A stretch of 64,000 nucleotides of DNA from assembly GCA_021827715.1 (NCBI GenBank), contig JAKAUO010000019.1, positions 3,290-67,289 on the forward strand. Direction: 5' to 3'. Below the pieces are notes generated by a model, which was given only the letters and a program-made list of their open reading frames with translations, was not told the DNA's origin and searched no databases. This DNA is from a bacterium (GTDB taxonomy: Bacteria > Babelota > Babeliae > Babelales > Babelaceae). A program made the translations under genes and the position numbers. This document shows positions 3,387 through 55,190 of the stretch, piece after piece (positions within the stretch are counted from its first letter, which is position 1; every line of letters begins with the position of its first letter).

Positions 3387-4408
3387 AAATAAGGCACGAT
3401 AACATACGCTAAGCGGTAACGATTTTCCCATGCCTGAACAAACGGCTTAAGTGGATAGCGCACTGCTTTCTGCACATTTTTCTCTGCCGTATCATGGCAT
3501 ATAATTTCTCTTTTATTCAAATCAATACCCACTACCGTAATCAAATGTCCTTTATCATAAGGCTTCAGTGCACCGGGCAATAATTCAGATGAGCAAATAC
3601 TCAAAATTACCGGACATCCTCGCTTAAGTAATCGAATGATATCCTTCAATGAGTTTAAACGTGCAACATAGCAAAGATATCCCGGTAAATAGACGCCGGC
3701 AAGTGCGGTATTAAAGGGCCAACTTCCGTAAATAGAAAGTTTTGAATCAAAAACTTCCTGTGCTAGTGTCGCTACATCATAAGATTTATTGGTATAAAAC
3801 CCTATCACTTGAGCAATTGACGCTGGTGAGCACCAACCGGTACTTTCTGTATAGTCAGCACTATGTTGTGATAAAATGGGTACGCCTTGAATGTAAAGCG
3901 GTTTGACATTTTTGGGATAATCATCTATAGGTTCGGGCTTAAAAAGTGCAAGATCGGAGGCGCATACACTGATGCTACGAAGCACCTGGGTATCAGCGCC
4001 TTTGTACCCCTGCACGTTAATACGAAACTGATGATATTTTCTTCCATGAGCACCTTCAAAGCGCACATGAACATAGCGCGCGCTTGAAGAAGGATCTTTT
4101 TCTAAAAATGAATGGTTAATCCCTTTACCCCATTCATACATTTTATAGGTTGACCATTTGTGTAACTTTTCATCAAACACTTCTAAAGAAAAGCGTAAAT
4201 ACCCTTTTGCAGGAAGATCTGCGGTCCATGAAACTAACAGTTGGTTAAAGGGTTGCGCTCCTTTTTTTTCAACAGTAACGTTACCCGTTTTACGAATAAA
4301 GGCTTCTGGGAAAAAATGGTATGTTTTTGTCCACGTATGCGCATGCATATATCCAATGCTGCTCAGTATAATTAAATAGATACTATTTTTTTTCATACCT
4401 GTTCTCAA
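3383..4408 (-). CDS. secreted peptidase C39-like (papain-fold) protein with an unknown N-terminal beta-rich domain
   Basis: Signal peptide. Candidate catalytic Cys in GWCSPASIAQVIGFY and His in KGHLITVVGID. Confidence 0.55.
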   Translation of the reverse strand: MRTGMKKNSIYLIILSSIGYMHAHTWTKTYHFFPEAFIRKTGNVTVEKKGAQPFNQLLVSWTADLPAKGYLRFSLEVFDEKLHKWSTYKMYEWGKGINHSFLEKDPSSSARYVHVRFEGAHGRKYHQFRINVQGYKGADTQVLRSISVCASDLALFKPEPIDDYPKNVKPLYIQGVPILSQHSADYTESTGWCSPASIAQVIGFYTNKSYDVATLAQEVFDSKLSIYGSWPFNTALAGVYLPGYLCYVARLNSLKDIIRLLKRGCPVILSICSSELLPGALKPYDKGHLITVVGIDLNKREIICHDTAEKNVQKAVRYPLKPFVQAWENRYRLAYVIVPYF

Positions 4409-4414
4409 TGTATC

Positions 4415-5569
4415 CTACAAAACATGGATATCAAAAAGCTCTTCAAATCTTTTAAAATTATAGAGCATCTCAATAACTTGTAATCGAGAACGGTTCCACA
4501 CGGGTAACATATCCAATGCATGTTGCATAAAACTATTAAGACCTATTTTATATTCAGTGTTTCCTGCTTGATCAACAATAACTTCAGGAAACGCGATACC
4601 TATACCAAAAAGTCCCGGTGCGATAAAGCCTGTTTGGGTATTATATTCCATATCAGGATTACAACCGGGAATAGGATTACGTTCATACCCTGCAGCATAA
4701 ATAATTTTTGTACACAAAGGCAGCCATGCCTTACGCGCCTTTTCTGAATTATAAATTCTGGCTAAATTGCAGGGTGGGTTTTTTTCTAATACATTTTTTG
4801 CCCATTCAGCAGCAATACCCTTAAGCCCAGAACTACTATACAAAAGCCAACCACCCATGTCCTGCGTATAGACAAAAGGTTTTTTATAAAAATTGATAAT
4901 ACGCGAAACCGGAAGTTCACTTAAAAATTTAAGAACTAAAACCGCAGAATGTGCGCTGCCAATAACAGCAACAGTATCTTCTGGGTTTACCAATTGCCCA
5001 AGAAGATCTTTATTTAAGGCATAGTCAAGGGGAATTTCTTCTGCACATTCTTGATACTGTAAGGATCGGGGATGCGCTCCTGTTGCAAGCACTACCCGTT
5101 GGGCATCAAATTCTTTTCCATCGGCAAGCTCTATGTGCCAAGTATCCGCACTATATTCTAAACCTGTCAATAAGGTCTGATGCGAAGTAACTTTAAAGCG
5201 CATACAATTGGTGATATCTTGAAGCGGTTTTACAATAATAGAAAGTGGGTACTCTTTTACCAAATTATAATTATATAATTCTTGTACTGCGTGCGGTGCG
5301 CATTCCTGAAACGCTTTACACGCCTGTATAAAATCAATATATAAGGAAGTTTTTGTATTGCCCGGCACTGTTTGGTAATAGTGCCCAATACGTCCTACGT
5401 TAAATTCAGGATCCACCCAGACAATATCTTTTTTAGGAATACCCAAATCAAGTAATAACCCAACAACTACTATACCTGCAGGTCCGGCTCCCACTACGCA
5501 CCATTGAACTGCATTAACCTCTAATAGACCCATACAAATAAGGGCTAAAAAAATTTTCTTAAGATTCAT
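4415..5569 (-). CDS. FAD/NAD(P)-binding oxidoreductase (two Rossmann motifs) with a hydrophobic N-terminal leader
   Basis: VVGAGPAGIVVVG directly follows a hydrophobic leader. Second dinucleotide motif VAVIGSAHSAV. The alternative start at M13 would remove the leader. Confidence 0.6.
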   Translation of the reverse strand: MNLKKIFLALICMGLLEVNAVQWCVVGAGPAGIVVVGLLLDLGIPKKDIVWVDPEFNVGRIGHYYQTVPGNTKTSLYIDFIQACKAFQECAPHAVQELYNYNLVKEYPLSIIVKPLQDITNCMRFKVTSHQTLLTGLEYSADTWHIELADGKEFDAQRVVLATGAHPRSLQYQECAEEIPLDYALNKDLLGQLVNPEDTVAVIGSAHSAVLVLKFLSELPVSRIINFYKKPFVYTQDMGGWLLYSSSGLKGIAAEWAKNVLEKNPPCNLARIYNSEKARKAWLPLCTKIIYAAGYERNPIPGCNPDMEYNTQTGFIAPGLFGIGIAFPEVIVDQAGNTEYKIGLNSFMQHALDMLPVWNRSRLQVIEMLYNFKRFEELFDIHVL

Positions 5570-5620: not shown

Positions 5621-7351
5621 TTATTGCAAGACACGCAATGCTACATCGACGCCTTGGAGTTCGAGTGAAACTTTACCGTTCCAATGGTTTTCAGTTATAT
5701 ACGCAGCTATAGAAAAAGAATTATCTTGGTTGCAAGAAAACCATTCATATAATTCTGGACGGTTGAAAAAAATCACTGACTTAATGACGCCTTCAGAAAA
5801 TATACGTATTTTACAATGCTGCTCTTTAAGCAAATGCGGTGGTTCAAGAAGTGTTACCTGTTCTATAAAAAAAAGTGGCTGGGCATTTTCACAGCCAAAG
5901 GGTTCTAAATAATGAAGCCCATGGGAAAGCTGTTGGGTGATATCGGTAAGCAGTAAGGGCGCATCACAAGTGATTCTTTTAATAAGTGTTTCAGCCGTTA
6001 CATACTGCATAATATATTCAGATAAACGCTTTTTAAAAAGGTCAAAATGTTCTTCTTTTAAGGAAAGCCCTGCCGCCATAGGGTGACCACCAAAACTTAT
6101 TAAAAGATCTTTCACCGATGTTAATGCTTTGAAGATATCACATTCTGGAATTGACCGGCATGATCCCTTTAAAATTCCGCCCGCTGTTTTATGTAATAAA
6201 ATAGTAGGAACATTATAAGCATTCATAAGTTTACCTGCCACCAACCCGATAACACCTGATGGCCAATCATCATTGCAAGCAATAATCATGCGCGATTCAT
6301 GGGGACGAATGGCGCCCTGACTAATATGCTGTTGCACCGCTTCAAAAATGCTCCTTTCAATCTGCTTACGCGTTTCATTTAATTGATGCAAGAGGCTTCC
6401 GACCGCTTCTGTAACCGCATCATCGCTTCCCACCAGGAATTTAACGCCTGAACGCGCATCTTCCAAGCGCCCGAGCGCATTAATTTGAGGAGTAATAAAA
6501 AAACCTATATCCAATGAATTCAAAAGAGGCTTAGTAACACGCGCATTGCGCTTGAGAACGGTTAACCCGTAACTGTGACCTTGCGTAATTTTTTTCAACC
6601 CATGCCGCACCCAATACCTATTTTCCCCGGTAAGCGGCACCACATCAGCAACGGTTCCTAAGAGTAACAATTCATACACTTGGTATGGTAACTCTTTACC
6701 CAGTCGCTTATAAAGTAAAGACATAAGTTTAAAGCTCACGCCCACCCCGGCAAAAAATTTATAGGGGTATGAGCAATCTTCCTGGTGGGGGTCAATCACT
6801 GCAAAGGCAGCAGGAACTTTACCATGTGGTCTGTGATGATCAGTAATAATAAGATCAATACTGAGTTGCTGTGCACGCTCAGCCGGCTCAAAAGCGCTAA
6901 TGCCGTTATCTACGGTAATAATAATTTTATAGCCATTCTGATGAGCACGCTCAATAGTTTTACACGATAACCCGTACCCATCTTTTACGCGATGCGGTAA
7001 AAAGAAATTTACCTGCGCACCCAGCGGCAACAAACAGATCATCATAAGCGCTGAGGAGGTTATCCCGTCAACATCATAATCACCGGAAATTAAAATTTTT
7101 TCAGAATGCTCAATTGCTTTTAGTAAACGATCAACGGCTTTTTCTGCGTCTTTAAGTAATGCAGGATCCGCGACATCTTTTTCATAAGAGCTTATTAAAT
7201 AATCTTGTAAATGCTCTTTTTGAGTAAATCCTCGACTATACAAAGCATAAGTTAATGCTATCGGAAGCGCCACTTGTGTAGCAAGATTGGCAACCTGCTG
7301 GGTATCAACTTCAGGGATTTTCCACTGATATTTAAGGCCTTGCACAATCAC
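5621..7351 (-). CDS. recJ: single-stranded-DNA-specific exonuclease RecJ
   Basis: DHH-family motifs: GDYDVDGITS, TVDNGI, ITDHH, and GGHPMAAG (DHHA1). Confidence 0.9.
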   Translation of the reverse strand: MIVQGLKYQWKIPEVDTQQVANLATQVALPIALTYALYSRGFTQKEHLQDYLISSYEKDVADPALLKDAEKAVDRLLKAIEHSEKILISGDYDVDGITSSALMMICLLPLGAQVNFFLPHRVKDGYGLSCKTIERAHQNGYKIIITVDNGISAFEPAERAQQLSIDLIITDHHRPHGKVPAAFAVIDPHQEDCSYPYKFFAGVGVSFKLMSLLYKRLGKELPYQVYELLLLGTVADVVPLTGENRYWVRHGLKKITQGHSYGLTVLKRNARVTKPLLNSLDIGFFITPQINALGRLEDARSGVKFLVGSDDAVTEAVGSLLHQLNETRKQIERSIFEAVQQHISQGAIRPHESRMIIACNDDWPSGVIGLVAGKLMNAYNVPTILLHKTAGGILKGSCRSIPECDIFKALTSVKDLLISFGGHPMAAGLSLKEEHFDLFKKRLSEYIMQYVTAETLIKRITCDAPLLLTDITQQLSHGLHYLEPFGCENAQPLFFIEQVTLLEPPHLLKEQHCKIRIFSEGVIKSVIFFNRPELYEWFSCNQDNSFSIAAYITENHWNGKVSLELQGVDVALRVLQ

Positions 7352-8154
7352 GTCGGCCCCACTGCATCTTGGGTGTTTTTAGAAATAAGTGAACAATAAG
7401 AAAGATTATTCAGATCATACAGCGGATCAACTACCACTTCATATAAATAGCCTAAATTATTAAGAGTAAAATTCTTAATGCGTCCTACGGCTAACCCTTG
7501 AGGATAGAGTAACCCGTCACCACTGGTAAGTATTAATTCATCAAGCACCAGCGGTTCTAGGTGACTTATAAAATCAATCTGATTGCCATGAAAAACACCA
7601 TGCGCTCCTGACTGCGCACACACCACGGGAACATGACACTGCTGATCGGTAATGGGCATAACGCGAGCATGCCACGGATATACGCTTACTACCCTGCCTA
7701 ATAAAACATTATTCAAAGTGGCTAACATATTAAGTGCAATGCCATCAGAAGAACCTTTATCAATAATAAAAAATGAATCTTTTTGTTGTAATTGTTTATA
7801 GATAATTTGCGCAGTACCGCAATAGTTTAGAGGTTGCCTTTGCTCATACACAATTCCCAAAGCATGCATCTGCTTGCAACGCATCAATTCTGCTTGTGCT
7901 TTAATAACATCTTGCAATAATAAGGAACGCTCATGATAATTACGTTCTATAAGCAGATGATACTCTTTATGGCTTTTAAATCGATAATAAGCATCTTGCA
8001 TGGGCTGCACCGTATAGGCATACAGACATACCAATATATAGAGCACCGCACTGACCAGCACCGAAAAGGGATAAAGTACCACCTGCGGGTGCTTGATGAC
8101 TCCGTACAATAAAAAAAGTACTATACTGAAGGCTACAACATTTCTTATACGCAT
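7348..8154 (-). CDS. mreC: rod-shape-determining protein MreC
   Basis: N-terminal TM, coiled-coil region, then MreC-like LLGRVVSV...ITD...LTSGDGLLYPQGLAVGRI. 4-nt overlap with recJ. Confidence 0.7.
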   Translation of the reverse strand: MRIRNVVAFSIVLFLLYGVIKHPQVVLYPFSVLVSAVLYILVCLYAYTVQPMQDAYYRFKSHKEYHLLIERNYHERSLLLQDVIKAQAELMRCKQMHALGIVYEQRQPLNYCGTAQIIYKQLQQKDSFFIIDKGSSDGIALNMLATLNNVLLGRVVSVYPWHARVMPITDQQCHVPVVCAQSGAHGVFHGNQIDFISHLEPLVLDELILTSGDGLLYPQGLAVGRIKNFTLNNLGYLYEVVVDPLYDLNNLSYCSLISKNTQDAVGPT

Positions 8155-8168
8155 ACACTTTAAAACTA

Positions 8169-8966
8169 TTAAAAACGTTTTTCATAAGAAAGCGCCAGAG
8201 CGCCTGATTTGTTTACCAGAATATCATAGGTGCGTTCATGATGTAAGCCGTTCTTTACAACTTTTTCAGAAGCAGCGCCAAAGACACACCCTAAGGCAGC
8301 GCCAGCAACCACTTGAGACACGGTATGCCGATTAATAGCAACTGACTGAATCGCAACAAGAAGCGCAAAAGCGCTTAACGGAATAGCATAATCTTTTCCT
8401 AATTCTGCACCAAATAAAAAAGCCATAAAGGCTACTTCAAACATATGTCCAGAGGGAAACCCACCGTAATATTTTTTGCAGGGAGAAAAATATTCATTTT
8501 TTGGCCTGAGTGATCCTTTGATAGGAATCAATTTAAGCGCATCTTTATACAGCCACAAAAAGGGGAGCGCTGCTAAAAAGGTATTAGAGGTCAGACGAGT
8601 ACGCTCATCAGATGAAAAAAATTGTAATAAAATAAGGGCAGTAAAAGATATGCCCATCAGCGGATCAACACTATATTTAAAGACAGGGGCAATTTCATGA
8701 ATATTGCGGTGTTTTTTTTTATTATAAAAATAGGCGTGCGTCGGTGCGTCTGCCGCCCGCCCGGCCATATAAAATGGTGCGCTTTCTAATAAAATTTTAT
8801 AGGTATCTGCCGTTCCAAAAAGATATTTATTGAAATTAATCATGCCATGAATAGTTTGCTGCATAAAGATAGAAAGCGGGTTACCACACAGCGGTGCTAG
8901 CGTAATTATCACAATAATCCGTATAAAAAAACGCGCACGCGCCATTGCAAGCCCCATAAGAAACAT
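8169..8966 (-). CDS. PAP2-superfamily membrane phosphatase-like protein (third motif degenerate)
   Basis: Multi-TM. GSLRP and GFPSGH match PAP2 motifs 1 and 2. Motif 3 reads INRHTVSQVVAG, so the canonical SR and the D of SRx5Hx3D are not conserved. Confidence 0.55.
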   Translation of the reverse strand: MFLMGLAMARARFFIRIIVIITLAPLCGNPLSIFMQQTIHGMINFNKYLFGTADTYKILLESAPFYMAGRAADAPTHAYFYNKKKHRNIHEIAPVFKYSVDPLMGISFTALILLQFFSSDERTRLTSNTFLAALPFLWLYKDALKLIPIKGSLRPKNEYFSPCKKYYGGFPSGHMFEVAFMAFLFGAELGKDYAIPLSAFALLVAIQSVAINRHTVSQVVAGAALGCVFGAASEKVVKNGLHHERTYDILVNKSGALALSYEKRF

Positions 8967-45415: not shown

Positions 45416-46645
45416 ATGATAAGACTTATAATTCGACTTGCCTTAGCCCATATTTACCGTGCGACTGGTCAAAAAAATATATCTCTTATGATAAAAATTT
45501 GTTTTGCTGCGCTGACCATAAGCACCTTTTCACTTACTTTAGTGGTGGCTGTTATGAATGGATTCCAGAAAGAAACCGCCAAGAAATTACAAGGAATTCA
45601 TGCAGACATTATCATTAAAGCGCCAGCAGAAGCTTTAGATTATGAAAAACTTATCACGGTTATAAAAAAAGAATTTATCGCTGAGATTCAACAGGCATCT
45701 CCCCAGGCTATCAGCAATGTTATCCTTAAATCTAACAAGCATGACACTCTTTCTCCGTTGAGTGTATGTATCGGCATTGATCCACAACGCGAGAACGAGG
45801 TAACAACTCTTTTTAGCATGTTGAGCTCACCTGAAAATCCATTGCTGCAAATAGCGGGCAATCGGATCCTGATTGGAAAAACTGCAGCTCAAGTATTAGA
45901 TGCCACACCCCAAGAGCCTATAAGCTTGTTATATATCCCTGAAGAACCACAAAAAAGAAAAATTACGCTGGAAGAAACACACGCTGTTATTGGCGGCACG
46001 TTTAGAACAGGAATTGAAGAATTTGATACTGCAGTAGTATTTTGTAATCTCGATTTTTTTAAAAAAACATTTAAAAATAGTGATGTTTCCCAGATAGTTC
46101 TTAAGTGCAAGCCGGGTATAAATCTTGAGCAGTGCGCTCACGCGTTAAAAAAACGCTTTGGGCAACTTGAAGTTTATACCTGGAAAGAGTTATATCCCGC
46201 ACTTGTTTCTGCATTAGCGCTTGAAAAATATGCCGCCTTTATTATTTTAGCACTCTGTGCATTGATTGCAGCAATGAATTGCCTGGCACTTATCTTTATG
46301 TTTATCACCCAGAAAAAAATGGAAATTGTGATACTCAAAACCATGGGCATGCGTGATAAGGATATCAGCTTAATCTTTCTTCTTATCGGCTTTATGATCA
46401 CCTTAGCGTCCACTATATTCGGCATTATTCTTTCTGCAGGTGCCGGATGGTTCTTGCAGCGCTATCCGCTTATTACCTTACCAGATGCCTATTACGTTGA
46501 TCATTTACCGGTTGATTTAGATTTCCCTTTAATACTTGCTGTTTTTTGTACCATGCTTGCCTTAGGGACTTTCGCTTCATACATTCCTTCACGCAGGATA
46601 CATACTTTTTCTATAGCGCATCTTCTTAAATTTGGAGCCGAATGA
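45416..46645 (+). CDS. LolC/LolE-type (FtsX-family) ABC transporter permease
   Basis: N-terminal TM + VMNGFQKE, a MacB-like periplasmic domain, and 3 C-terminal TMs (FtsX fold). Confidence 0.75.
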   Translation: MIRLIIRLALAHIYRATGQKNISLMIKICFAALTISTFSLTLVVAVMNGFQKETAKKLQGIHADIIIKAPAEALDYEKLITVIKKEFIAEIQQASPQAISNVILKSNKHDTLSPLSVCIGIDPQRENEVTTLFSMLSSPENPLLQIAGNRILIGKTAAQVLDATPQEPISLLYIPEEPQKRKITLEETHAVIGGTFRTGIEEFDTAVVFCNLDFFKKTFKNSDVSQIVLKCKPGINLEQCAHALKKRFGQLEVYTWKELYPALVSALALEKYAAFIILALCALIAAMNCLALIFMFITQKKMEIVILKTMGMRDKDISLIFLLIGFMITLASTIFGIILSAGAGWFLQRYPLITLPDAYYVDHLPVDLDFPLILAVFCTMLALGTFASYIPSRRIHTFSIAHLLKFGAE

Positions 46646-47697
46646 TGAAACGCATTCCAATGCTGGACTGGAAGTTAATGAACAAAAGAGTGTTTGTACG
46701 TGCCGATTTGAACACCAAACTTTCAGGAACATCGGTTCCTCACAGTTTAAAATTTAAACGACTACTGCCTACGCTTGCCTATCTTAAAAAAGCTGGGGCG
46801 CAAATCACCCTTGCAACACATATTGATCGGCCTACGCATTTTCAACCCGAATTTTCAACACGACAACTGACCCATTTTTTAAATCAAGAAGGGTTTTCTT
46901 GTCTGTATAGTACCCCAGAAAGTCTTTCAGCTCTTTTAGAACATGAACATGATATTATGCTGCTTGAAAACCTGAGGTTTTACCCAGAAGAAGAGACCAA
47001 TTCTCGAAATTTTGCTCATAAAATAACACAAAAATGTGACTACTTTGTCGAAGATGGCTTTGGTGTGTTAGCGCGCAAGGAAACCTCACACACCCCCGCT
47101 GCCGAGCTTTTCAAGCCAGAAAAAAGATCTATTGGGCTTTTGGTTGCAGAAGAATTGGAACATTTACAGCCCGTGAAAAAAAATCCCAAACAGCCTTATT
47201 TAGTCATGGTTGGCGGCGGAAAAGGTGAAGAAAAAATCAAGACACTGTATCATTTTCTTGATAAAGCTACTCATATTGCGCTTTTGCCGGGGCTTTCGGA
47301 ATTGCCGGAAGCGTATGATTTCATTCAGGACGCGCACAAGCATTCTGTTACCCTTTTGCTCCCTGAAGATTATGTAATGATTGATGATAAAAAAATCAGT
47401 ATTGGCACTCAGACACTAAAACAATGGCGCCCTATTATTCTTTCTATGCAGACCATCATTTACAATGGGTTGATGGGTTTTATCTCAGAACCAGAAACTA
47501 CTGCTATGACGCATGCTTTATTTGAACTTTTTAAGCAAAGTGAAGCTGAAAAAATTATTATTGCCGGGGGCGATACCACCTTTGCTGCACAACAATGGCA
47601 TATCCATGGGGAGAAGATTTTTCTTTCAACAGGCGGCGGCGCCACCTTAAGTTATCTCGCGGGTCAAAAATTGCCCGGGCTTAAGATTGTGACGTAA
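46642..47697 (+). CDS. pgk: phosphoglycerate kinase (short, divergent)
   Basis: VRADLN, ENLRFYPEEE, VGGGKGEEKI, YNGLMGF, AGGDT, STGGGATLSYLAGQKLPG. 351 aa vs about 390-400 typical. ATGA overlap with the preceding gene. Confidence 0.8.
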   Translation: MMKRIPMLDWKLMNKRVFVRADLNTKLSGTSVPHSLKFKRLLPTLAYLKKAGAQITLATHIDRPTHFQPEFSTRQLTHFLNQEGFSCLYSTPESLSALLEHEHDIMLLENLRFYPEEETNSRNFAHKITQKCDYFVEDGFGVLARKETSHTPAAELFKPEKRSIGLLVAEELEHLQPVKKNPKQPYLVMVGGGKGEEKIKTLYHFLDKATHIALLPGLSELPEAYDFIQDAHKHSVTLLLPEDYVMIDDKKISIGTQTLKQWRPIILSMQTIIYNGLMGFISEPETTAMTHALFELFKQSEAEKIIIAGGDTTFAAQQWHIHGEKIFLSTGGGATLSYLAGQKLPGLKIVT

Positions 47698-47833
47698 TGA
47701 ACTAACAACGTACATTATTATAAAATCTCAGCTCGAAGCAACAAATTACAGGTTTGTCGCAACAGAAAAATAATAATTGCGCAACGCGTCTAGAGGGGTA
47801 AAGCAACATGTTCCAATTAAAATTCTATGACAT
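47632..47833 (+). repeat. direct repeat copy A (pgk 3' end plus about 135 nt downstream)
   Basis: Aligns with 48911-49114. The core 47665-47833 vs 48947-49114 differs at about 7 positions by eye. Confidence 0.85.
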
Positions 47834-47895
47834 ATACTTATACGAAAAGGAAGAGTAGTTCGTTTTTTTAAACCTATTACTCAAAAGGAGTGATC

Positions 47896-47955
47896 ATGTT
47901 ACAATGGTCAAAGAATAATTCAACATTTTTAAAAAAAGGCAGCTATTTACTTTGA
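47896..47955 (+). CDS. 19-codon leader ORF with the only strong RBS of the cassette (possible 5' part of a recoded gene)
   Basis: aaggag at 47885-47890, 5 nt before the ATG. Contains A7 run 47931-47937 in A_AAA_AAA register. Confidence 0.3.
   Translation: MLQWSKNNSTFLKKGSYLL
47931..47937 (+). other. A_AAA_AAA heptamer (potential -1 frameshift / poly-A slippage site 1)
   Basis: In the frame of ORF 47896 the codons are tta aaa aaa ggc. The -1 frame is open from here into ORF 47958. Confidence 0.4.
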
Positions 47956-47957
47956 TT

Positions 47958-48089
47958 ATGCATACTATCAGAGCTAAATCGATCGCCATGTATTTTATAG
48001 CATTCTTGTGCTTGAATATATGTGCATCTGAACTTATGATACATGAAAAAGGCCTATTAACATCTGAAAAATTTGATGTAAAAAAATAG
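47958..48089 (+). CDS. 43-codon ORF with a signal-peptide-like segment (middle part of a possible recoded gene)
   Basis: MHTIRAKSIAMYFIAFLCLNICASE.... Ends gta aaa aaa tag, an A7 run immediately followed by a stop codon. Confidence 0.3.
   Translation: MHTIRAKSIAMYFIAFLCLNICASELMIHEKGLLTSEKFDVKK
48080..48086 (+). other. A_AAA_AAA heptamer followed by a TAG stop (potential -1 frameshift / slippage site 2)
   Basis: The -1 frame from 48086 reads IVKSKDDYFILTKHGVHKVHRHDVSQSLRE and runs without a stop into ATG 48176. Confidence 0.4.
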
Positions 48090-48175
48090 TAAAAAGCAAA
48101 GACGACTATTTTATTCTTACCAAACATGGAGTTCATAAGGTTCATAGACATGACGTTTCTCAATCATTAAGAGAA

Positions 48176-48508
48176 ATGAATGACGAACAATTGACCCATT
48201 TCTTGAATGGTAATAATGGCGTTATCAAGGTTTGTCGTTTCGCTAATGGTGAATTCAAGCTTGATAGACATGTTCGTGGAAATGGTGGCGGCGCTATAGG
48301 GGCGGCTGTGGGAGTTGTGGCTGGAACTGCTGTGGTGCAAGGAGTTGCTCATGGAACAATTTGGACAATTGCTGCATGCACCGGCCCATTCGTATTTTTC
48401 GTTGGATATGCACTTGAAGCTGCGTGTGCCCCTGCTATTGCCTCTGCAACTGTATATGCAGCCGCAGTTGGTGGTTTGACTGGCGCAGTTGCAACAGGCC
48501 CCATTTGA
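48176..48508 (+). CDS. Gly/Ala-rich hydrophobic (glycine-zipper, bacteriocin-like) membrane peptide
   Basis: 110 aa. GNGGGAIGAAVGVVAGTAVVQGVAHG...AAAVGGLTGAVATGPI. The reading frame is open upstream to 48075. Confidence 0.55.
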   Translation: MNDEQLTHFLNGNNGVIKVCRFANGEFKLDRHVRGNGGGAIGAAVGVVAGTAVVQGVAHGTIWTIAACTGPFVFFVGYALEAACAPAIASATVYAAAVGGLTGAVATGPI

Positions 48509-48520
48509 TAGGGAAGTACT

Positions 48521-48625
48521 ATGTTTTATTGGTATGAACAAGTGCTACTATCATTTCCTATGGTAGTATTACTATACTTCCTGAAGTTTTATGTCATATT
48601 ACCTTACCTGAGAAATAAAAAATGA
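48521..48625 (+). CDS. 34-aa hydrophobic mini-protein
   Basis: MFYWYEQVLLSFPMVVLLYFLKFYVILPYLRNKK. ggaag 5 nt upstream. The stop overlaps the next ATG (ATGA). Confidence 0.35.
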   Translation: MFYWYEQVLLSFPMVVLLYFLKFYVILPYLRNKK

Positions 48626-48753
48626 CGCAGTTTGAACATAATATGATTGCCGGCGTTATACACATAATTCTTTGGATGTTTGTTTATCAACATCATTTTT
48701 ATGATGAAGAAGAACATCAATGGTGGATGAAATTCTGGAGTAAATTCTTTTAA
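48622..48753 (+). CDS. 43-aa mini-protein with one TM segment
   Basis: MTQFEHNMIAGVIHIILWMFVYQHHFYDEEEHQWWMKFWSKFF. ATGA coupling to the preceding mini-ORF. Confidence 0.35.
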   Translation: MTQFEHNMIAGVIHIILWMFVYQHHFYDEEEHQWWMKFWSKFF

Positions 48754-48784
48754 TAAAATCTTATCACATTTGGCCTATAATTTT

Positions 48785-48836
48785 ACAAAAGAGAAGTACT
48801 GAACAGCATTAAATCTGCAAAGTGCTTCTCTTTTGT
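48785..48836 (+). terminator. long hairpin downstream of the cassette ORFs (terminator-like)
   Basis: acaaaagagaagtact (48785-48800) pairs with agtgcttctcttttgt (48821-48836): 16 bp with one G-U. No clean T-run after it. Confidence 0.35.
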
Positions 48837-48910
48837 ATATCCATAAAACATATTCTTTAATTTTGCCAAGAACATCTCACTGTTATTTATTAGTGCAAAG
48901 TTTTATTTCT

Positions 48911-49114
48911 GGAGGCCAATGGACGCTATTTAAGCTACTTGCGGGACAAAAATTGCCCGGGCTTAAGATTGCGACGTAATGAACTAACAACGTACATTAT
49001 TATAAAATCTCAGCTCAAGCAACAAATTACAGGTTTGTCGCAATAGAAAAATAATAATTGCGCAACACGTCTAGAGGGGTAAAGCAACATGCTTCAATTA
49101 AAATTCTATGCCAT
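48911..49114 (+). repeat. direct repeat copy B, including a decayed pgk 3' relic (48911-48979)
   Basis: Encodes GGQWTLFKLLAGQKLPGLKIAT* vs the pgk C-terminus GGGATLSYLAGQKLPGLKIVT*. The downstream 135 nt are near-identical to copy A. Confidence 0.85.
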
Positions 49115-49233
49115 CAGGACTTTGCTCTAATACAATAACCGCCATCTAATCTCTGTTATTTAAAAAATAACCCATGTTTTTTGAAACGATTTTACGATTG
49201 AATCGAATATCTTAATGAATTTATTAGAAATCA

Positions 49234-49741
49234 TCATGTCAAACTCTTGACTGAATCAAATAAAAATGGCTCACTTTTTTTGTCAAAGAAAAACGAATTT
49301 TTCAAAAAATCTGATTTTAACCAGTAACTCTCTACTAGATTGGATCTCTTAGAATCGACCCTATCAATACTTTTATAATATCCAGCATGAGAAACTTTAA
49401 AAACTGATGATCTATTCAAGAAAAACAAAAAGCCTAAAAGTCGCCAGAGCGGTGAAAATGACGACACAATCGCAAAAACATTTCAAAATCACCATAGACC
49501 ATTTTCATATTATAGCGATACAATCAGCTTTATCATGCATTAGTCAAAGTCCTGCTAATATTTCATCTTTCGCTGTTCTACTTGAATCTTTAACTATTGA
49601 TTCAAAGAGCTTTTCATTATCAATCTTAAAAGCAAATGCCGCAGCACTGAAAGTAAAAAGGATATCGCGCGTAAGAGGTCTATAGCGCATTAAATTCATA
49701 AATTTATTATGGTGGATCACCGATCGAGTCGGGGATGACAC
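49234..49741 (-). pseudogene. possible fragmented gene remnant (two out-of-frame ORF pieces)
   Basis: ORFs 49544-49741 and 49234-49467 lie on the same strand in different frames, with no RBS or recognisable domain, in a low-coding-density region next to repeat copy B. Confidence 0.2.
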
Positions 49742-49779
49742 TTTGAAGGTGTCAACGTGCCAAGTTTTGCACTAGGAAA

Positions 49780-49947
49780 CTATTTAGTTCTTGGGAACCA
49801 TTTGTCCTGGAGGTAGTTGCCCATATTAGAGCCCCTATTTTGATGCTTCTCATCATATTGCTTATCAAGATGGTCAACATCTTTACGACTATTTTCACCT
49901 TTAGTATGCTTAGACGAATTCTTTTTATTCTTTTTAACTAATTTCAT
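49780..49947 (-). CDS. 55-aa basic hydrophilic mini-protein
   Basis: aaggag RBS 7 nt upstream of the ATG. MKLVKKNKKNSSKHTKGENSRKDVDHLDKQYDEKHQNRGSNMGNYLQDKWFPRTK. Below the ORF-track cutoff. Confidence 0.35.
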   Translation of the reverse strand: MKLVKKNKKNSSKHTKGENSRKDVDHLDKQYDEKHQNRGSNMGNYLQDKWFPRTK

Positions 49948-50008
49948 TACCCTACTCCTTAAAATTATAACTATATACTTTAAGGATACATAATAAAAGA
50001 TTAAAAAA

Positions 50009-50920
50009 TCAACGGTTTTTCAAAGTTTTAGAGCCAAATTGGTCGATATAAAAGACCAGCAGGCCTAAAAAGATAAGGCCGCCGCCGAGTATAATCGGCC
50101 AACTTACGGGTTCCGCCAAGAAAATATAGGCAAAAAAGGTGACTAATAAGGGAATAGAAAAGCCAGCAAGTGAAACAAGCGTGGCAGAATGGTGCTTAAG
50201 GCTTTGGGCATACAGGGTGTAACCCACAATATTGCCTCCAATAATAGTAAAAAGAAAAGCGGCAAAAAAGTAAGGGTAAGACGTTATATCATACACCTTC
50301 AGCTGGCCATTTAACGCGGCGCCTGCCAGCGCCATAACCCCGGCGCTTAATTGCATTAAAGTATTAATTTGTATTGGCGTATAATGGCCCTTGCGCAACA
50401 ACGATTGGACCAATATCCAACCATACCTACTGAGGATAACGGCACTTAAAATAGCAAGTTCAGGGTAAGAGATGCGCCAAAGCCACTCATACCCCATTTC
50501 AGGAGAAGACTTGGAAAGAATCACTACGAAAGTGCCTATTAAACCGATAACCATTCCTAATGTTTTAGTTATGGTAATTTTTTCATTAAACATGCAATAA
50601 ACCATAAAGGCGGTAATAAAAGGGTCAATACTTCCTAAAAGGGATTGTTTGCTTGCAAGCATATGTTTTAAAGACCATGCCTTGAGTAAAGCAGGTACCA
50701 AGGTGGTGCACGCTGCAATGATAAGCAAAAGAACCCTATCATTTTTTACTCGTTCATAGGTTAACCGTTCAGTCTGGTGCCAATGGTATACCATGAGTAT
50801 GCTTCCAGAAATGAGCATACGGAGCGCTACAAAAAATTCTGCAGAAATGCTGGAAAGTATATATTTATTACACACAATTCCGGCAGCAAGAAAAAGATAA
50901 GCAAGAAAGATATCGAGCAT
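50009..50920 (-). CDS. EamA-family (DMT) transporter, 10 TM
   Basis: 303 aa with two EamA-like 5-TM halves. Confidence 0.75.
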   Translation of the reverse strand: MLDIFLAYLFLAAGIVCNKYILSSISAEFFVALRMLISGSILMVYHWHQTERLTYERVKNDRVLLLIIAACTTLVPALLKAWSLKHMLASKQSLLGSIDPFITAFMVYCMFNEKITITKTLGMVIGLIGTFVVILSKSSPEMGYEWLWRISYPELAILSAVILSRYGWILVQSLLRKGHYTPIQINTLMQLSAGVMALAGAALNGQLKVYDITSYPYFFAAFLFTIIGGNIVGYTLYAQSLKHHSATLVSLAGFSIPLLVTFFAYIFLAEPVSWPIILGGGLIFLGLLVFYIDQFGSKTLKNR

Positions 50921-50955
50921 AATGTCCTGATTTTTTTAATATATTTTTAAGTATA

Positions 50956-51492
50956 TTAAAAAACAGGGCAAAATCCTAAAAAGCAGGTGCCTCGGGCGAA
51001 AACTTCCATATCCTCAATCTGAGATTCGTGTTTATCATAGACAAAGAGTCCCTGGTTTCCGTGCTTAAGGGGAAATCTATGAAAGCCCAAGTCACGTACA
51101 TCTAATTGATGAGCAATATCTTGCAGATAATCTTCAGGGTTTTTATGTTTACCATCGACTTGATCAGCATTCCCCTGCTGAATTGCGCGAACTTTCTGGT
51201 TAAAAGCATTATTCTGCATAAATTGGGTAAAATTTTCAGGTTCGTCCCAGAGAGAATGGTATTCTGGGTGTTCTTTTTTATTGTAGCCCGCTATACCTTT
51301 AAAACATTTAAAATCTGGGTTATCAATAAAAAAAGCTGCTTTAGGCATATTAAAACAATTTTCATGGCACAGTTCATACAAAATAAATTCCGAAACATTT
51401 TCTGTTCCATGAAGGCGTAAAATTTTTTCCGGAATAGTACTTAAAGACCTGAGAACTTGGGCATCGCGTGATAAGATTTCTGTGTTCTTCAT
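50956..51492 (-). CDS. hypothetical cytoplasmic protein (178 aa)
   Basis: Start set at MKNTEIL (AAGGA RBS 5 nt upstream). No recognisable motif. Confidence 0.5.
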   Translation of the reverse strand: MKNTEILSRDAQVLRSLSTIPEKILRLHGTENVSEFILYELCHENCFNMPKAAFFIDNPDFKCFKGIAGYNKKEHPEYHSLWDEPENFTQFMQNNAFNQKVRAIQQGNADQVDGKHKNPEDYLQDIAHQLDVRDLGFHRFPLKHGNQGLFVYDKHESQIEDMEVFARGTCFLGFCPVF

Positions 51493-51731
51493 GGACATCC
51501 TTTTTAAAAGGGGTTTACACATCTCACATGAATTAGTGTAACAACGAATAAAAATAAAAATCAAATTTCAATTATGAACCCCAGAAGAACAACTTATTTT
51601 ATAGCACCTCTTGATAAAGGCTCTCTGGATCAATACAATTGAATACATAATCGTAACTTGCTATCGCCAGATTCCCTGTGCTATTTTAAAGCGAGAACGT
51701 TAAATAGTCTTGGCCACTAACTATACTGTGT

Positions 51732-52793
51732 ATGCGTTATTTAAAATTACTCCTTGTACTCGTTTTCATTCTGACTTCATGTCGCCGCAGTGTGCACAGG
51801 CCTCAGAATAAAAAATTTCCAGAAATAGTAACATGTTGGCAAGATAATCCTGCTCAAACATTTCACTTAAAGAATTCTCATTTAGAACCAGCTCTGTTTT
51901 CGGTCTATAATAAAGAATATTTGGACTCAAAAAAATTACCTGCTGTTATAACTGATAGGCATCAATCTGGTATATTCTATCAGACCAACCTTCTTATAAA
52001 TGACTTAGAAGAAGTGGTCACACAGTTACAAAAAAGTAAGAAAAAAATTAAAAAATTAGATAATTTTACTATCCTTAAGCAGACCGATTATAATTACCTT
52101 AAACATACAGGCCTCATGGTGTTACGCCATAAAAAATATCCTTTTGTGGTAAAACTTTTCATGGAAACTCCTGAAAACTTTGTCAAACCCTTTAGCAGGG
52201 GAATAGAAGAATGTGCCTTCTTTGTGATGGGCGGCGGAATGAACCGTTATCTTGCCGGGTTTACCCGCATTCCTAACCGCAACGAAATTCAAAAAAAAAT
52301 TGAGAGCAATAGATACTGGAAAAGTTTGATAGATACCCCACGCAAATGGTTTTGGGAACCTCAAGAGAATCGCCGAATTTTCATACAAGGTAAAAATATC
52401 GGAACTCAGCAAAAGAGTATGGTACTTCCTAGTATTTATGCAATAGTCTGTGATGCTATAGAATCTGATCACGGCTTTAGTATTTTACGCCAAAATGATA
52501 GACATCTAGCGCTCTCAATAACGGAATTTTTAGGGATAAGAATCGACCCTCATATCAATAATTTTATGGTGGAAAAAGAGACTCAAAAAATTATTATCAT
52601 AGACACTGAGCATTTTCCGACCTTGATCGGCATAAAAGATGATTTTACTATTAATGATTTTATTACCTATTACTCACGATTAACCTTCAGATTCTTCACC
52701 AAAAAACTTTTATTTGATAAAAAAAACCTCAATGCGCTGCAAACACATCCGAGACCTGTTGTGTATCCATATGAGATTCATGGTGAAAAATAA
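51732..52793 (+). CDS. lipoprotein with a protein-kinase-like fold signature
   Basis: Lipobox FILTSC. YPFVVKLF (possible VAIK-like Lys). RIDPHINNFMV...IIIIDTEHF resembles the HxDxxxxN...D catalytic and Mg loops. Confidence 0.5.
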   Translation: MRYLKLLLVLVFILTSCRRSVHRPQNKKFPEIVTCWQDNPAQTFHLKNSHLEPALFSVYNKEYLDSKKLPAVITDRHQSGIFYQTNLLINDLEEVVTQLQKSKKKIKKLDNFTILKQTDYNYLKHTGLMVLRHKKYPFVVKLFMETPENFVKPFSRGIEECAFFVMGGGMNRYLAGFTRIPNRNEIQKKIESNRYWKSLIDTPRKWFWEPQENRRIFIQGKNIGTQQKSMVLPSIYAIVCDAIESDHGFSILRQNDRHLALSITEFLGIRIDPHINNFMVEKETQKIIIIDTEHFPTLIGIKDDFTINDFITYYSRLTFRFFTKKLLFDKKNLNALQTHPRPVVYPYEIHGEK

Positions 52794-54248
52794 TTAATTT
52801 TGCAAAGTACGCTCAAGTTCTTGCAAAATATGTTCAAGCTGACTGTCATTCTTTTTATGGGCATCAATTTTTTCGTAAGCATGTAACACGGTCGAATGAT
52901 CCTTTCTTGATAAGAATGCACCAATTTCCTTCAGAGACCTATCCGTATGCTTTTTCATCAAATAAAAGGCAATATGTCGCGCCTTTGATAGTTCCTTATC
53001 TCGCTTTTCAGAGCGCAATTCTGCAAGCGTTACATTAAAATGATTCATTACTGATCGCACCACTTTGGGTAAATCAAGCGCCTGACGTGATTGATAGGAC
53101 GAATTCTTAAAAAGAACTTTATCCACAAGTTCTTGTGTAATAGGCTGCCTTGTCAATGAAGCACAGGCAAGAACACGAATAAGAGCGCCCTCTAATTCGC
53201 GAATACTGGACGTTGCAGACTGTGCAATACATTCTGCAATCGCATCAGTAATAACTTCATTATGCATTTCCGCTTTCTTTTTTAAAATGGCAATCTTTGT
53301 TTCCAAGGTTGGCATACAAATATCAGCAACTAGTCCCCATTCTAATCGAGAACGCATCCGCTGCGCTAAACCGGCAATATCGCCAGGCAACGCATCACTG
53401 GTGCATACAATTTGTTTTTGTGTTTGATGCAAGGTATTAAAAATATGAAAAAAAGCCTCTTGCGTCTGCTCTTTATGAGAAATAAATTGAATATCATCCA
53501 TTAAAAGAACATCTATATTTTTATATTTTGCTTCAAAAATATGCGTTTTATTAAATCGAATAGCATGAATAAATTCTTGTACAAAACGATCTGCAGTTTG
53601 ATATACAATAATCGCTTTTTTATTATTTTTTTTAATGGCATGGCCTATAGCATGCAAAAGGTGTGTTTTGCCCAAACCTGAAGGCCCATACATAAAAAAT
53701 GGATTATAGAGTATTCCAGGCTTTTCAGCAGCAGCTACTGCGGCAGCATAAGCAAGAGAATTACTCGGGCCCACCACAAAAGTATCAAATGTGTAGATTT
53801 CATGGAACATGGCACGGGCAGATGACTTTTCATTGCTTCTTACAACGGTACGAATTGAACCTTTTACTAATTCATGTCTTGAATGGCCCGTACTATGGGC
53901 CGTAGTGTGCGACACTGAAATGGGCTGAAGACCCGGAATAACCTGCGCAGGGATTATCGTTGGCGCACAATCTTCGTGCTTTTTTGATGATTCTTGAGGC
54001 ATACTATCAACAAATTGAATAGTAATTGTTTGTTCGCCTAAAAGACGTGCTAAATGTTTCTGCAAAAGAGGCAGATAATGTTTAACGATCCAATCTTTAA
54101 TAAAGTGATTCGGCGCCTTTAAATAGATGATTTTCTTATGCGTATCCCAAAAAAGACATGATATGGCCTTAAACCACGTTTCAACAACGGGGCTGCCTGC
54201 CTCTTCACGCGCAATAGCTAAAAATTCACGCCAAATCTGGTTGACCAC
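52794..54248 (-). CDS. dnaA: chromosomal replication initiator DnaA
   Basis: GPSGLGKTHLLHAIG, LLMDDIQF, IRELEGAL, HSTVLHAYEKI. GTG start with an AAGAGG RBS. Confidence 0.93.
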   Translation of the reverse strand: MVNQIWREFLAIAREEAGSPVVETWFKAISCLFWDTHKKIIYLKAPNHFIKDWIVKHYLPLLQKHLARLLGEQTITIQFVDSMPQESSKKHEDCAPTIIPAQVIPGLQPISVSHTTAHSTGHSRHELVKGSIRTVVRSNEKSSARAMFHEIYTFDTFVVGPSNSLAYAAAVAAAEKPGILYNPFFMYGPSGLGKTHLLHAIGHAIKKNNKKAIIVYQTADRFVQEFIHAIRFNKTHIFEAKYKNIDVLLMDDIQFISHKEQTQEAFFHIFNTLHQTQKQIVCTSDALPGDIAGLAQRMRSRLEWGLVADICMPTLETKIAILKKKAEMHNEVITDAIAECIAQSATSSIRELEGALIRVLACASLTRQPITQELVDKVLFKNSSYQSRQALDLPKVVRSVMNHFNVTLAELRSEKRDKELSKARHIAFYLMKKHTDRSLKEIGAFLSRKDHSTVLHAYEKIDAHKKNDSQLEHILQELERTLQN

Positions 54249-54314
54249 ACAAACCTCTTAAATATTTTTTAGATGCTCTTCAATGTACCAGAACTACTGC
54301 TGTTTCTCAATAAC

Positions 54315-55190
54315 TCATGTAAGTATCTTTTTGCCCGCCATTAAAGCGCGTGACCACCCATTATGGACACGTGGTTGCGCAGTGCAATCACCCACTACCT
54401 TGCAGTGTAATTCATACTCGGGCCGAACGCGCAGAATATATCCATCAAAAGTCATTTCAGTTACAGAATTCAAAAATTGTGAATCGGGGCTACTGCCTAA
54501 AGCGAGTAATACCATATCCACGCGCACAACACGAGTATCGAGGGTTAACACAAATTCGTTCGTGTCTCTTGTGCAGGTAATTACCTTGGACGAACAGATC
54601 ATCTTAATGGCTGCACCATTCAAAGTATCTTCTAAATTCTTTTGAATGTCTTCAGATTCTAAAGAAAGAATTTTTGGCTCTTTTTCAAAAAGAGTTACTT
54701 CAAGGCCCCGTTGCCTGCAAGCAAACGCGGCTTCAACCCCGCTTAAGCCGCCCCCAATAATTGCAACCGAAGTAATGTTTGTGCTTGCACTATACTTGGT
54801 AATATCTTCAACATCATCAAGCGTATGATAAGTAAAAACCCCTTTATGAAGATACGTTTTAAATAATTCAGGAACTCTCGGACGAGTTCCAATACCAATA
54901 ATTATCGTATCATAGCCAAATACTTGCCCATTGTGCGTTACCACCATTTTTTGATCAGGATCAATTTCTACCACCCTCTGCTGCAGATACAGTTGTGCAT
55001 GTGCCGGCAGTTTTAAAAATGTCTGTTCCTTCGGCCATACACCGGCTAAAACATGTTTAATGGAACAGGTATTATTGGGGTATTCACGTTGTTGCGTAAG
55101 AATAAGTAACTCTGCTTGAGGGTCATGTTTTGCTAAGGTATGTGCTGCTGAAACACAGGCTGCCGAAGCGCCTATAAAAATATATCTCAT
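54315..55190 (-). CDS. FAD/NAD(P)-dependent pyridine nucleotide-disulfide oxidoreductase (short form, 291 aa)
   Basis: MRYIFIGASAACVSAA and VAIIGGGLSGVEAAFA dinucleotide motifs. Lacks a C-terminal dimerisation domain. Confidence 0.7.
   Translation of the reverse strand: MRYIFIGASAACVSAAHTLAKHDPQAELLILTQQREYPNNTCSIKHVLAGVWPKEQTFLKLPAHAQLYLQQRVVEIDPDQKMVVTHNGQVFGYDTIIIGIGTRPRVPELFKTYLHKGVFTYHTLDDVEDITKYSASTNITSVAIIGGGLSGVEAAFACRQRGLEVTLFEKEPKILSLESEDIQKNLEDTLNGAAIKMICSSKVITCTRDTNEFVLTLDTRVVRVDMVLLALGSSPDSQFLNSVTEMTFDGYILRVRPEYELHCKVVGDCTAQPRVHNGWSRALMAGKKILT

Follow-up and report, generated by a model that had tools for sequence, protein, structure and literature searches.

How did the 3′ end of pgk come to lie twice, as a direct repeat, on either side of a small cassette in the 64,000-nucleotide (nt) stretch of DNA analysed here, and can the cassette still move? 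This stretch (positions 3290-67289 of contig C43, hereafter the window) belongs to G000, the metagenome-assembled genome (MAG) of a Babeliaceae (Dependentiae) bacterium, of 1.0 Mb in 54 contigs and 94% complete. An earlier account, made from the letters of the window and referred to here as the sequence-only reading, had explained the arrangement by integration of an element into the 3′ end of pgk together with a replacement end, or alternatively by tandem duplication followed by replacement of the interior. From comparison with relatives, we propose that the locus is probably an old and now immobile insertion scar at the 3′ end of pgk, which was later reshaped by homologous recombination.

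The relatives comprise G001-G005, which are genomes of the same genus as G000, G009, which belongs to another genus, and the L-numbered sequences, which are mostly Logan contigs (L050 and L053 correspond to G004 and G005, and L072 to G009:C1:285000-297000). The label GZ denotes the main gene of the cassette and its protein family, and C48 is the G000 contig that bears a paralogous cassette.

DNA was added at the 3′ end of pgk

Empty sites are present among the relatives, where the sequence-only reading had suggested looking for them. The genes flanking pgk lie in the same order in G002-G005, each of which has a single pgk end followed by orf55 and EamA, and a single pgk end is also found in G001. 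It follows from these single ends, and from the short intervals between pgk and orf55 in the relatives (Table 1), that DNA was added at the pgk end of the window. Further relatives were not found in the JGI metagenomes when queried with the pgk protein and a 21-nt junction, and neither the 351-amino-acid (aa) nor the 350-aa version of the pgk protein had a match when looked up exactly. No transfer RNA (tRNA), transfer-messenger RNA (tmRNA) or Rfam family is located within or near the repeats.

The downstream repeat copy is a hybrid junction

The direct repeat is real, with a core that spans 187 nt in copy A (47647-47833) and 185 nt in copy B (48930-49114) and an identity of 94-95% by repeat search, MAFFT and BLAST; the outer limits 47632 and 48911 that had been proposed for it lie within a decayed zone. 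The copies are separated by a distance of 1281-1283 nt and differ at 6 positions within the non-coding 136 nt, close to the approximately 7 differences claimed before. One 1-nt indel distinguishes them in the non-coding part, and aligners place another near 48936. Exactly two copies exist in the whole G000 genome, so that the proposed search for further copies yields none beyond A and B. The 60 nt preceding each copy (47587-47646 and 48870-48929) are weakly alike, albeit above chance, with 0.25% of shuffles and 0.33% of random 60-mers scoring as well.

Copy A opens with the final 51 nt of pgk, which complete the intact gene. The corresponding part of copy B has decayed, as the sequence-only reading described, and its translation ends in LLAGQKLPGLKIAT followed by a stop. 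The pgk-specific portion of the repeat is confined to 47647-47735 (89 nt, comprising the 51-nt coding end and a 38-nt flank). From approximately 47733-47736 onwards, the repeat aligns with the upstream regions of GZ genes in L043, L047, L050, L067 and partly C48, where no pgk is adjacent, and the leader part of copy B stops inside the promoter −10-like region. Because it includes 98 nt of the cassette leader, copy B is a copy of the left junction, that is, of the pgk end plus the start of the cassette, and not a plain second attachment (att) site. The two repeats had been likened to an attL/attR pair; they do not look like a simple pair of this kind, because their last 98 nt belong to the leader of the cassette, and copy B represents a hybrid junction together with a truncated second unit. 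Indeed, the left side of copy B exhibits B-type states that are shared with copy B of the sister contig L048 (an extra A in GGACGC, and GGGAC), whereas its right side is A-like and runs into the flank and leader of copy A. The 38-nt flank itself cannot tell which copy is native, because its likeness to the flank of G001 is at chance level (p about 0.06).

Independent contigs reproduce the arrangement. L065 (SRR13205815) and L066 (ERR3200794, 3 samples) match the window at 100% from 47691/47705 to 49002, with an A-type start and a B-type end, and L071 (ERR3200803) matches 48987-54947 at 100%. All three end within a 44-nt stretch that is identical in A and B, as expected of an assembler with k = 31. 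The Logan runs that match the locus may or may not be those from which G000 was assembled.

The duplication predates the split from a sister lineage

A close relative is provided by L048, a 21.9-kb Logan contig that was reached via a homolog of the cassette protein, with housekeeping proteins that are 89-96% identical at the aa level and flanking DNA that is 89% identical. In L048, too, pgk and the cassette are followed by another pgk end, which lies at 7026-7083 and shares 79% identity with copy A of that contig; beyond it come a convergent 240-aa gene, orf55 and EamA. Where the cassette tail passes into copy B (48845-48929), the window and L048 share 97.6% identity, and the decayed stretch tttatttctggaggccaatggacgc is part of this conserved junction. 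Duplication of the pgk end therefore predates the split between the window and L048, since both carry the same junction. The arrangement is thus old, being neither recent nor private, and is older than the split from a lineage that has diverged by 11% in DNA.

Copy B of L048 is complete up to the stop codon, and 2 nt further on lies the stop of the convergent 240-aa gene. In G001, the gene that natively adjoins the single pgk end is a homolog of this one (32% identity, E = 1e-12). On the simplest reading, copy B is the displaced original end of pgk and copy A is the replacement. To this extent the proposed integration at the pgk 3′ end with a replacement end stands: the insertion, the two pgk ends, the empty sites and the fit of L048 copy B to a displaced original end are all present.

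Copies A and B of the window differ by 4.4% in the non-coding part, while copy A of the window differs from copy A of L048 by 4.5% over the same stretch. Given the similarity of these two values, the step that formed the hybrid would date from around the time when the species separated.

Exchange of the cassette core

Identity between the cassettes of the window and L048 is 84-99% across 47700-48300, falls to 50-63% across 48301-48700 and returns to 82-94% across 48701-48930. We note that the variable core is sharply bounded, with window positions 48301-48720 facing L048 positions 6420-6850, and encompasses the C-terminal domain of GZ, orf34 and most of orf43. The C-terminal domain of GZ in the window is 89-91% identical to those of L067 and of contig C53 of G001 (G001:C53), but 43% identical to that of its positional ortholog in L048, whereas the N-terminal part is 82% identical to L048 and 64-67% identical to L067 and G001:C53. 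The small genes follow G001:C53, with identities of 82% for orf34 and 72% for orf43. This pattern indicates that the core has been exchanged by recombination relative to L048. The C-terminal types are discrete and are shuffled behind a conserved N-terminal part, as in polymorphic toxin-immunity modules.

Features of the cassette

The features of the locus and the corresponding intervals in relatives are collected in Table 1.

Table 1. Coordinates of the pgk locus in the window, with the equivalent intervals in genomes of the same genus
Feature	Position or genome	Strand	Description and evidence
pgk (351 aa), intact	46642..47697	+	PF00162, E = 1.6e-59; orthologs with the same neighbours in G001-G005 and L048
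Repeat copy A	47647..47833	+	pgk coding end 47647-47697; 38-nt flank 47698-47735; first 98 nt of the cassette leader 47736-47833
Cassette leader	47736..47895	+	Four GCAAC(A) boxes, TTACAGGTTT motif, promoter-like ATATACTTATA region, AAAGGAG ribosome-binding site; alignment of 8 cassette loci
GZ gene, broken over three frames	47896..48508	+	Signal peptide, small conserved domain, two-helix Gly/Ala-rich C-terminal domain
orf34, tiny one-helix membrane protein, conserved cassette member	48521..48625	+	tblastn: G001:C53 82%, C48 47%, L048 55%, also L043 and L047
orf43, tiny membrane protein with conserved FYDEEEHQWW-KFW tail	48622..48753	+	tblastn: 49-72% in all cassette copies
Hairpin, terminator-like, cassette end	48784..48837	+	17-bp stem; dG = −25.9 kcal/mol, z = −5.5, 0/200 shuffles as good
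Tail and decayed pgk-like stretch; old right-hand junction into copy B	48845..48929	+	97.6% identical to L048 6947-7028
Repeat copy B	48930..49114	+	pgk-end pseudo-copy 48930-48979 (stop 48977-48979); flank 48980-49016; leader copy 49017-49114
665 nt with no recognisable gene or homolog	49115..49779	.	Occupies the place of the 240-aa-type secreted-protein gene of L048 and G001
orf55, small basic lysine-rich protein, 55 aa	49780..49947	-	First gene of the conserved block beyond the insertion; 98% identical in L048, beside pgk in G002-G005
pgk-orf55 interval	window		2082 nt
pgk-orf55 interval	G003, G005		13-25 nt
pgk-orf55 interval	G002, G004		About 520 nt with an unrelated secreted-protein gene, about 160 aa
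pgk 3′ side	G001 (pgk 75% aa)		Single pgk end, 105 nt, convergent 207+-aa gene; contig stops before orf55

The intact GZ protein is usually about 190-206 aa long; it comprises 192 aa in the C48 paralog and 206 aa, in a single frame, in the positional ortholog of L048, with a family range of 174-212 aa and a Sec-type N-terminal helix. Relative to L048, the GZ gene of the window lacks 1 nt at or beside each of two A7 runs (47931-47937 and 48080-48086). Both frameshifts are present at 100% in L065 and L066 and are thus not sequencing errors of one assembly, since these independent contigs carry them. The 110-aa open reading frame (ORF) at 48176-48508, on which the earlier description of a bacteriocin-like module was founded, is the 3′ remnant of the frameshifted GZ gene, and searches with family models of bacteriocins gave no match to it.

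Among 5.8 billion clustered proteins, the GZ family has 13 matches, 2 of them from G000 itself, all unnamed and lacking Pfam domains. Alignment and an AF2 model of low confidence (mean pLDDT 60.8) point to four parts in GZ: a signal-like helix at the N-terminus, then a small beta/alpha domain, then the motif H-x-x-G-x-GG(G), which is invariant in the alignment, and finally a helical hairpin of approximately 70 aa that is rich in Gly/Ala. No Pfam, NCBIfam or PHROG match was obtained for GZ at E ≤ 0.1-1, no Foldseek hit in the PDB at E ≤ 0.001 and no hit below E = 0.1 in a profile search of PDB sequences, and a literature search found nothing that links Dependentiae with the term glycine zipper. 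Judged by the architecture of the cassette alone, its most likely product is a protein that inserts into membranes and is toxin-like or exclusion-like, accompanied by small partners.

The start of orf43 overlaps the stop of orf34, their products being 43 and 34 aa in length, and the self-inverted match of the terminal hairpin is kept in L043, L048 and C48. No homolog of 48845-48929 is found in cassettes at other sites. Homology with the paralogous cassette of C48 covers 47866-48844 at 67-80% DNA identity, and no direct repeats flank that cassette.

Within the leader, 47834-47900 is 100% identical to L048. The 98 nt of leader that are shared by both repeat copies contain GCAAC four times, compared with 2.6 occurrences per kb genome-wide. 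In the leaders of the window, C48, L043, L047, L050 and L067, GCAAC(A) occurs 4-5 times with a spacing of approximately 20 nt after the conserved TTACAGGTTT. This array looks like a set of binding sites for a putative regulator; a signal of RNA structure was not found in the leader (z = 0.32).

Homologous cassettes in mobile contexts

Cassettes of the same family are located beside mobile functions at other loci. In L043, L044 and L046, the GZ cassette lies 520 nt from a divergent large serine recombinase of 347 aa, together with a Gp49/HTH pair. In L050, it is part of an island by spoVG that also contains a 525-aa serine recombinase, HTH_17, AAA_25 and a tyrosine integrase, whereas in L053 it directly follows an rve transposase, and in L051 and L052 its surroundings are phage-like and include a P22-type portal gene. 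In G009 (L072 4705-9119), three GZ genes (190, 189 and 177 aa) are arranged in tandem, with 5′ parts that are 95-97% identical and C-terminal domains that differ. This array is bracketed by a 174-nt direct repeat (90% identity) of the promoter region, which a downstream 591-aa gene reuses. Tandem units and long bracketing repeats thus recur in the GZ family.

At the pgk locus itself, a domain search finds no integrase or transposase between the repeats, in agreement with the sequence-only reading. In G000, two Xer-like tyrosine recombinases (PF00589) and a 24-bit resolvase (PF00239) fragment are the only recombinases found, an absence of others that is not absolute at 94% completeness. Between one and five serine recombinases are present in each of the remaining genomes of the genus. 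Terminal inverted repeats are absent at 47834/48929 and the 187-nt duplication is far above the usual 2-15 bp, which distinguishes the locus from transposons and insertion sequences. Likewise, there is no third tyrosine recombinase in the genome, and the cassette has its own leader and promoter region and a perfect 17-bp terminator-type stem, features that set it apart from integron cassettes, which depend on an attC hairpin, an IntI integrase and an attI platform and mostly lack a promoter of their own. No pgk-like segment is present in the cassettes at other loci. A dif-like site was not found in the genome by fuzzy search with the E. coli and B. subtilis dif sequences and the dif core, and the repeat gave poor matches only.

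Two further observations concern repeats and recombinase remnants elsewhere. In L043, a GC-rich direct repeat of 120-148 nt is present in three copies (4290-4437, 7424-7571 and 8495-8642) that bracket two units, one comprising the 347-aa serine recombinase, the GZ cassette and a 126-aa gene, and the other an Rce1-like protease gene; the inter-repeat unit differs in L045. Short parts of this repeat match G000 contigs C7, C45 and C49, three of the matches being by or overlapping tRNA genes. The 24-bit resolvase-domain fragment of G000 (C30:12522-12989) is located just after tRNA-Lys and tRNA-Glu, and genes of C30 have homologs downstream of the GZ cassette on G001:C53. The fragment may be what is left of an island.

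Proposed history and alternative explanations

We propose that the locus arose in three steps, the first and third of which are shown by the sequences. In the first, a GZ cassette of approximately 1.1 kb entered the 3′ end of pgk in the common ancestor with L048, leaving two pgk ends, of which the upstream one completes pgk and the downstream one is, in L048, still found 2 nt from the native convergent neighbour. In the second, copy B on one chromosome would have crossed over unequally with copy A on the sister chromosome, which would have generated the hybrid repeat and a second cassette unit; indeed, a repeat that is B-type on the left and A-type on the right is exactly what such a crossing-over would give. 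The window would retain only the 98 nt of leader from the second unit, the remainder and the 240-aa-type gene having been replaced by 665 nt, and L048 either would never have had a second unit or would have lost it cleanly by the reverse recombination. In the third, the cassette is decaying in the window, as seen in the two 1-nt deletions of GZ, and its variable core has been exchanged relative to L048. Tandem duplication followed by interior replacement, the alternative offered by the sequence-only reading, comes closer to this scheme, but has to be placed on top of an older insertion.

Three routes to the first duplication yield the same product; they are not mutually exclusive, and our grading of them is rough. 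Possibly, the pgk 3′ end contains an attachment site on which a recombinase acted in trans. Equally possible, and as tentative, is one-sided homologous plus illegitimate recombination of incoming DNA, with the join located approximately 100 nt before the stop. Local tandem duplication plus deletion appears a slightly less likely route than either of these.

Several observations sit uneasily with the proposed history. No trace of the remainder of the second unit is found in 49115-49779. At the left edge of copy B, identity drops from 95% to about 60%, which plain neutral decay does not predict, and this sharp edge has to be explained by gene conversion in patches or by a first junction that lay in sequence of only partial similarity. 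The leader site GCAAC-A-CG has A in copy B, L043 and L047 and G in copy A of both the window and L048; this single site hints that the leader of copy B may be older than the split, in which case the loss in L048 would be secondary. Moreover, the order of events depends on one sister contig. With regard to the cassette, the toxin/immunity reading is weak, lacking a family-model or structure match, and L067 joins a window-type C-terminal domain to L048-type small genes, so that co-variation is not strict.

The alternative that survives best, although we consider it unlikely, is a still-mobilisable, integrase-less element resembling cis-mobilisable elements (CIMEs), in which a recombinase provided in trans by another island or a phage would use the repeats as attL and attR, and the 1.28-kb unit may circularise and re-integrate at pgk ends. 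The trans-recombinase route to the first duplication overlaps with this explanation. Duplication of the pgk 3′ end, with one copy completing the gene, is indeed as found at classical 3′-end attachment sites, but the repeat holds 98 nt of internal cassette sequence and so presents no plain att core, and no other cassette locus has a pgk-like segment to serve as attP. Large serine recombinases and a tyrosine integrase adjoin homologous cassettes elsewhere, and serine recombinases are common in the genus; however, G000 has no candidate beyond the two Xer-like genes and the resolvase scrap, its completeness of 94% considered, and large serine recombinases do not normally create long direct repeats, which counts against this explanation. 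Two tandem units would fit accretion at one site, but the scar has not moved while the DNA diverged by 11%, and its cargo gene is broken.

It is more improbable that no insertion took place at all, and that the cassette was ancestral downstream of pgk, was lost in the other species and acquired its repeats by local tandem duplication only. While the interval between pgk and orf55 is variable in the genus, with three kinds of content, the cassette is found at this site only in the window and L048, and its absence in G001-G005 would need several independent clean losses. Tandem duplication is frequent in the GZ gene family, but homologous cassettes sit in unrelated, mobile-element contexts, and duplication plus deletion would only by coincidence have brought L048 copy B to its native neighbour exactly at the stop.

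Finally, the assembly might have joined strain variants in tandem. An artefact, which the sequence-only reading had named as a possible refutation, might be suspected of a 54-contig MAG with copies that are about 5% apart, as strain variants would be, but is close to refuted already, given that three Logan contigs from different runs give A-cassette-B and B-downstream at 100% and that a separate species-level relative (L048) has the same junction.

A variable interval between pgk and orf55

The gene order at the locus is ORF423, rpiB (−), a lolE-like permease, pgk, the repeat-cassette region, orf55 (−), EamA (−), orf202 (−), orf353 and dnaA (−). The slot between pgk and orf55 varies within the genus, being empty, or occupied by a secreted-protein gene of approximately 160 aa or of 207-240 aa (the latter in G001 and L048), or by a GZ cassette (in the window and L048). 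All genomes of the genus that were compared have orf55 beside EamA, with 45-67% identity in G002-G005; it has no family assignment.

The 665 nt at 49115-49779 were compared with the 240-aa gene of L048 and with a second cassette as candidates for a decayed origin, but blastn, tblastx and tblastn gave no match. Within this stretch, a 43-nt hairpin-bearing sequence (49703-49745, beginning GGTGGATCACCGATCGAGTCGGGGATGACAC) is dispersed, with further occurrences at C48:18777-18818 (88%) and in G001 (4), G002 (2), G004 and G029. It looks like the T-arm and acceptor end of a tRNA, but neither any of the 35 tRNAs of the genome (0/35) nor the tmRNA matches it.

Relation to known systems

CIMEs are reportedly integrase-less derivatives of 3′-end integrative elements, as described for ICESt1 and ICESt3 of Streptococcus thermophilus. 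As in such elements, the target 3′ end at the pgk locus is present twice, as direct repeats around foreign DNA, and the gene is intact via one copy; further shared traits are the lack of a recombinase within the element, empty sites in relatives and hints of two units in tandem. Unlike in CIMEs, no cognate integrase is found in the genome, the repeat reaches 98 nt into the regulatory region of the cargo, the element is only about 1.1 kb and the scar is fixed over a species-level split.

Homology-facilitated illegitimate recombination, which is said to occur in Acinetobacter and Streptococcus pneumoniae, does not need an integrase: one homologous anchor and one illegitimate join insert DNA and duplicate recipient sequence. 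Here, pgk would represent the anchor, and the partly similar left edge of copy B resembles a microhomology join. The likeness is to the end-product only, however, and no donor with a pgk-cassette that lacks the duplication has been seen.

Glycine-zipper toxin cassettes include Caulobacter CdzC/CdzD-CdzI and class II bacteriocins. The GZ cassettes share with polymorphic toxin and bacteriocin-immunity cassettes a conserved exported N-terminal part, a swappable hydrophobic C-terminal domain rich in Gly/Ala and tiny membrane-protein genes that follow. They also resemble them in occurring more than once in a genome, including in tandem arrays, and in being carried by phage-like stretches and islands. 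In contrast to these systems, there is no sequence or fold match and no dedicated exporter nearby, and the small genes do not strictly co-vary. Moreover, class II bacteriocins have a double-glycine leader and a short prepeptide, whereas GZ proteins are 174-212 aa long with a Sec-type N-terminal helix, and the host of the GZ cassette belongs to an obligate intracellular symbiont lineage, in which bacteriocins have no obvious role.

A broader reading, which we regard as speculative and improbable as it stands, is that GZ cassettes are undescribed swappable membrane-toxin-like modules of the Babeliaceae (Dependentiae), moving as 1.1-1.3-kb units among phages, islands and chromosomes. Such modules would settle without a dedicated recombinase and duplicate 150-190 nt of local sequence, namely a gene end at pgk and the promoter region in G009, with the repeats then driving the gain and loss of tandem units.

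The locus itself is a fixed and decaying insertion scar with a truncated second unit, of a kind that is already known, whereas the GZ family is unannotated. Gene-end insertion, duplication of the end, recombination between the copies, exchange of the core and decay are all displayed at this one locus, which illustrates cleanly, in nature, that intracellular bacteria with small and reduced genomes still acquire and reshuffle accessory cassettes. The architecture of GZ, as a lineage-restricted family, suggests a membrane-damaging or exclusion function on the mobile DNA of Dependentiae.

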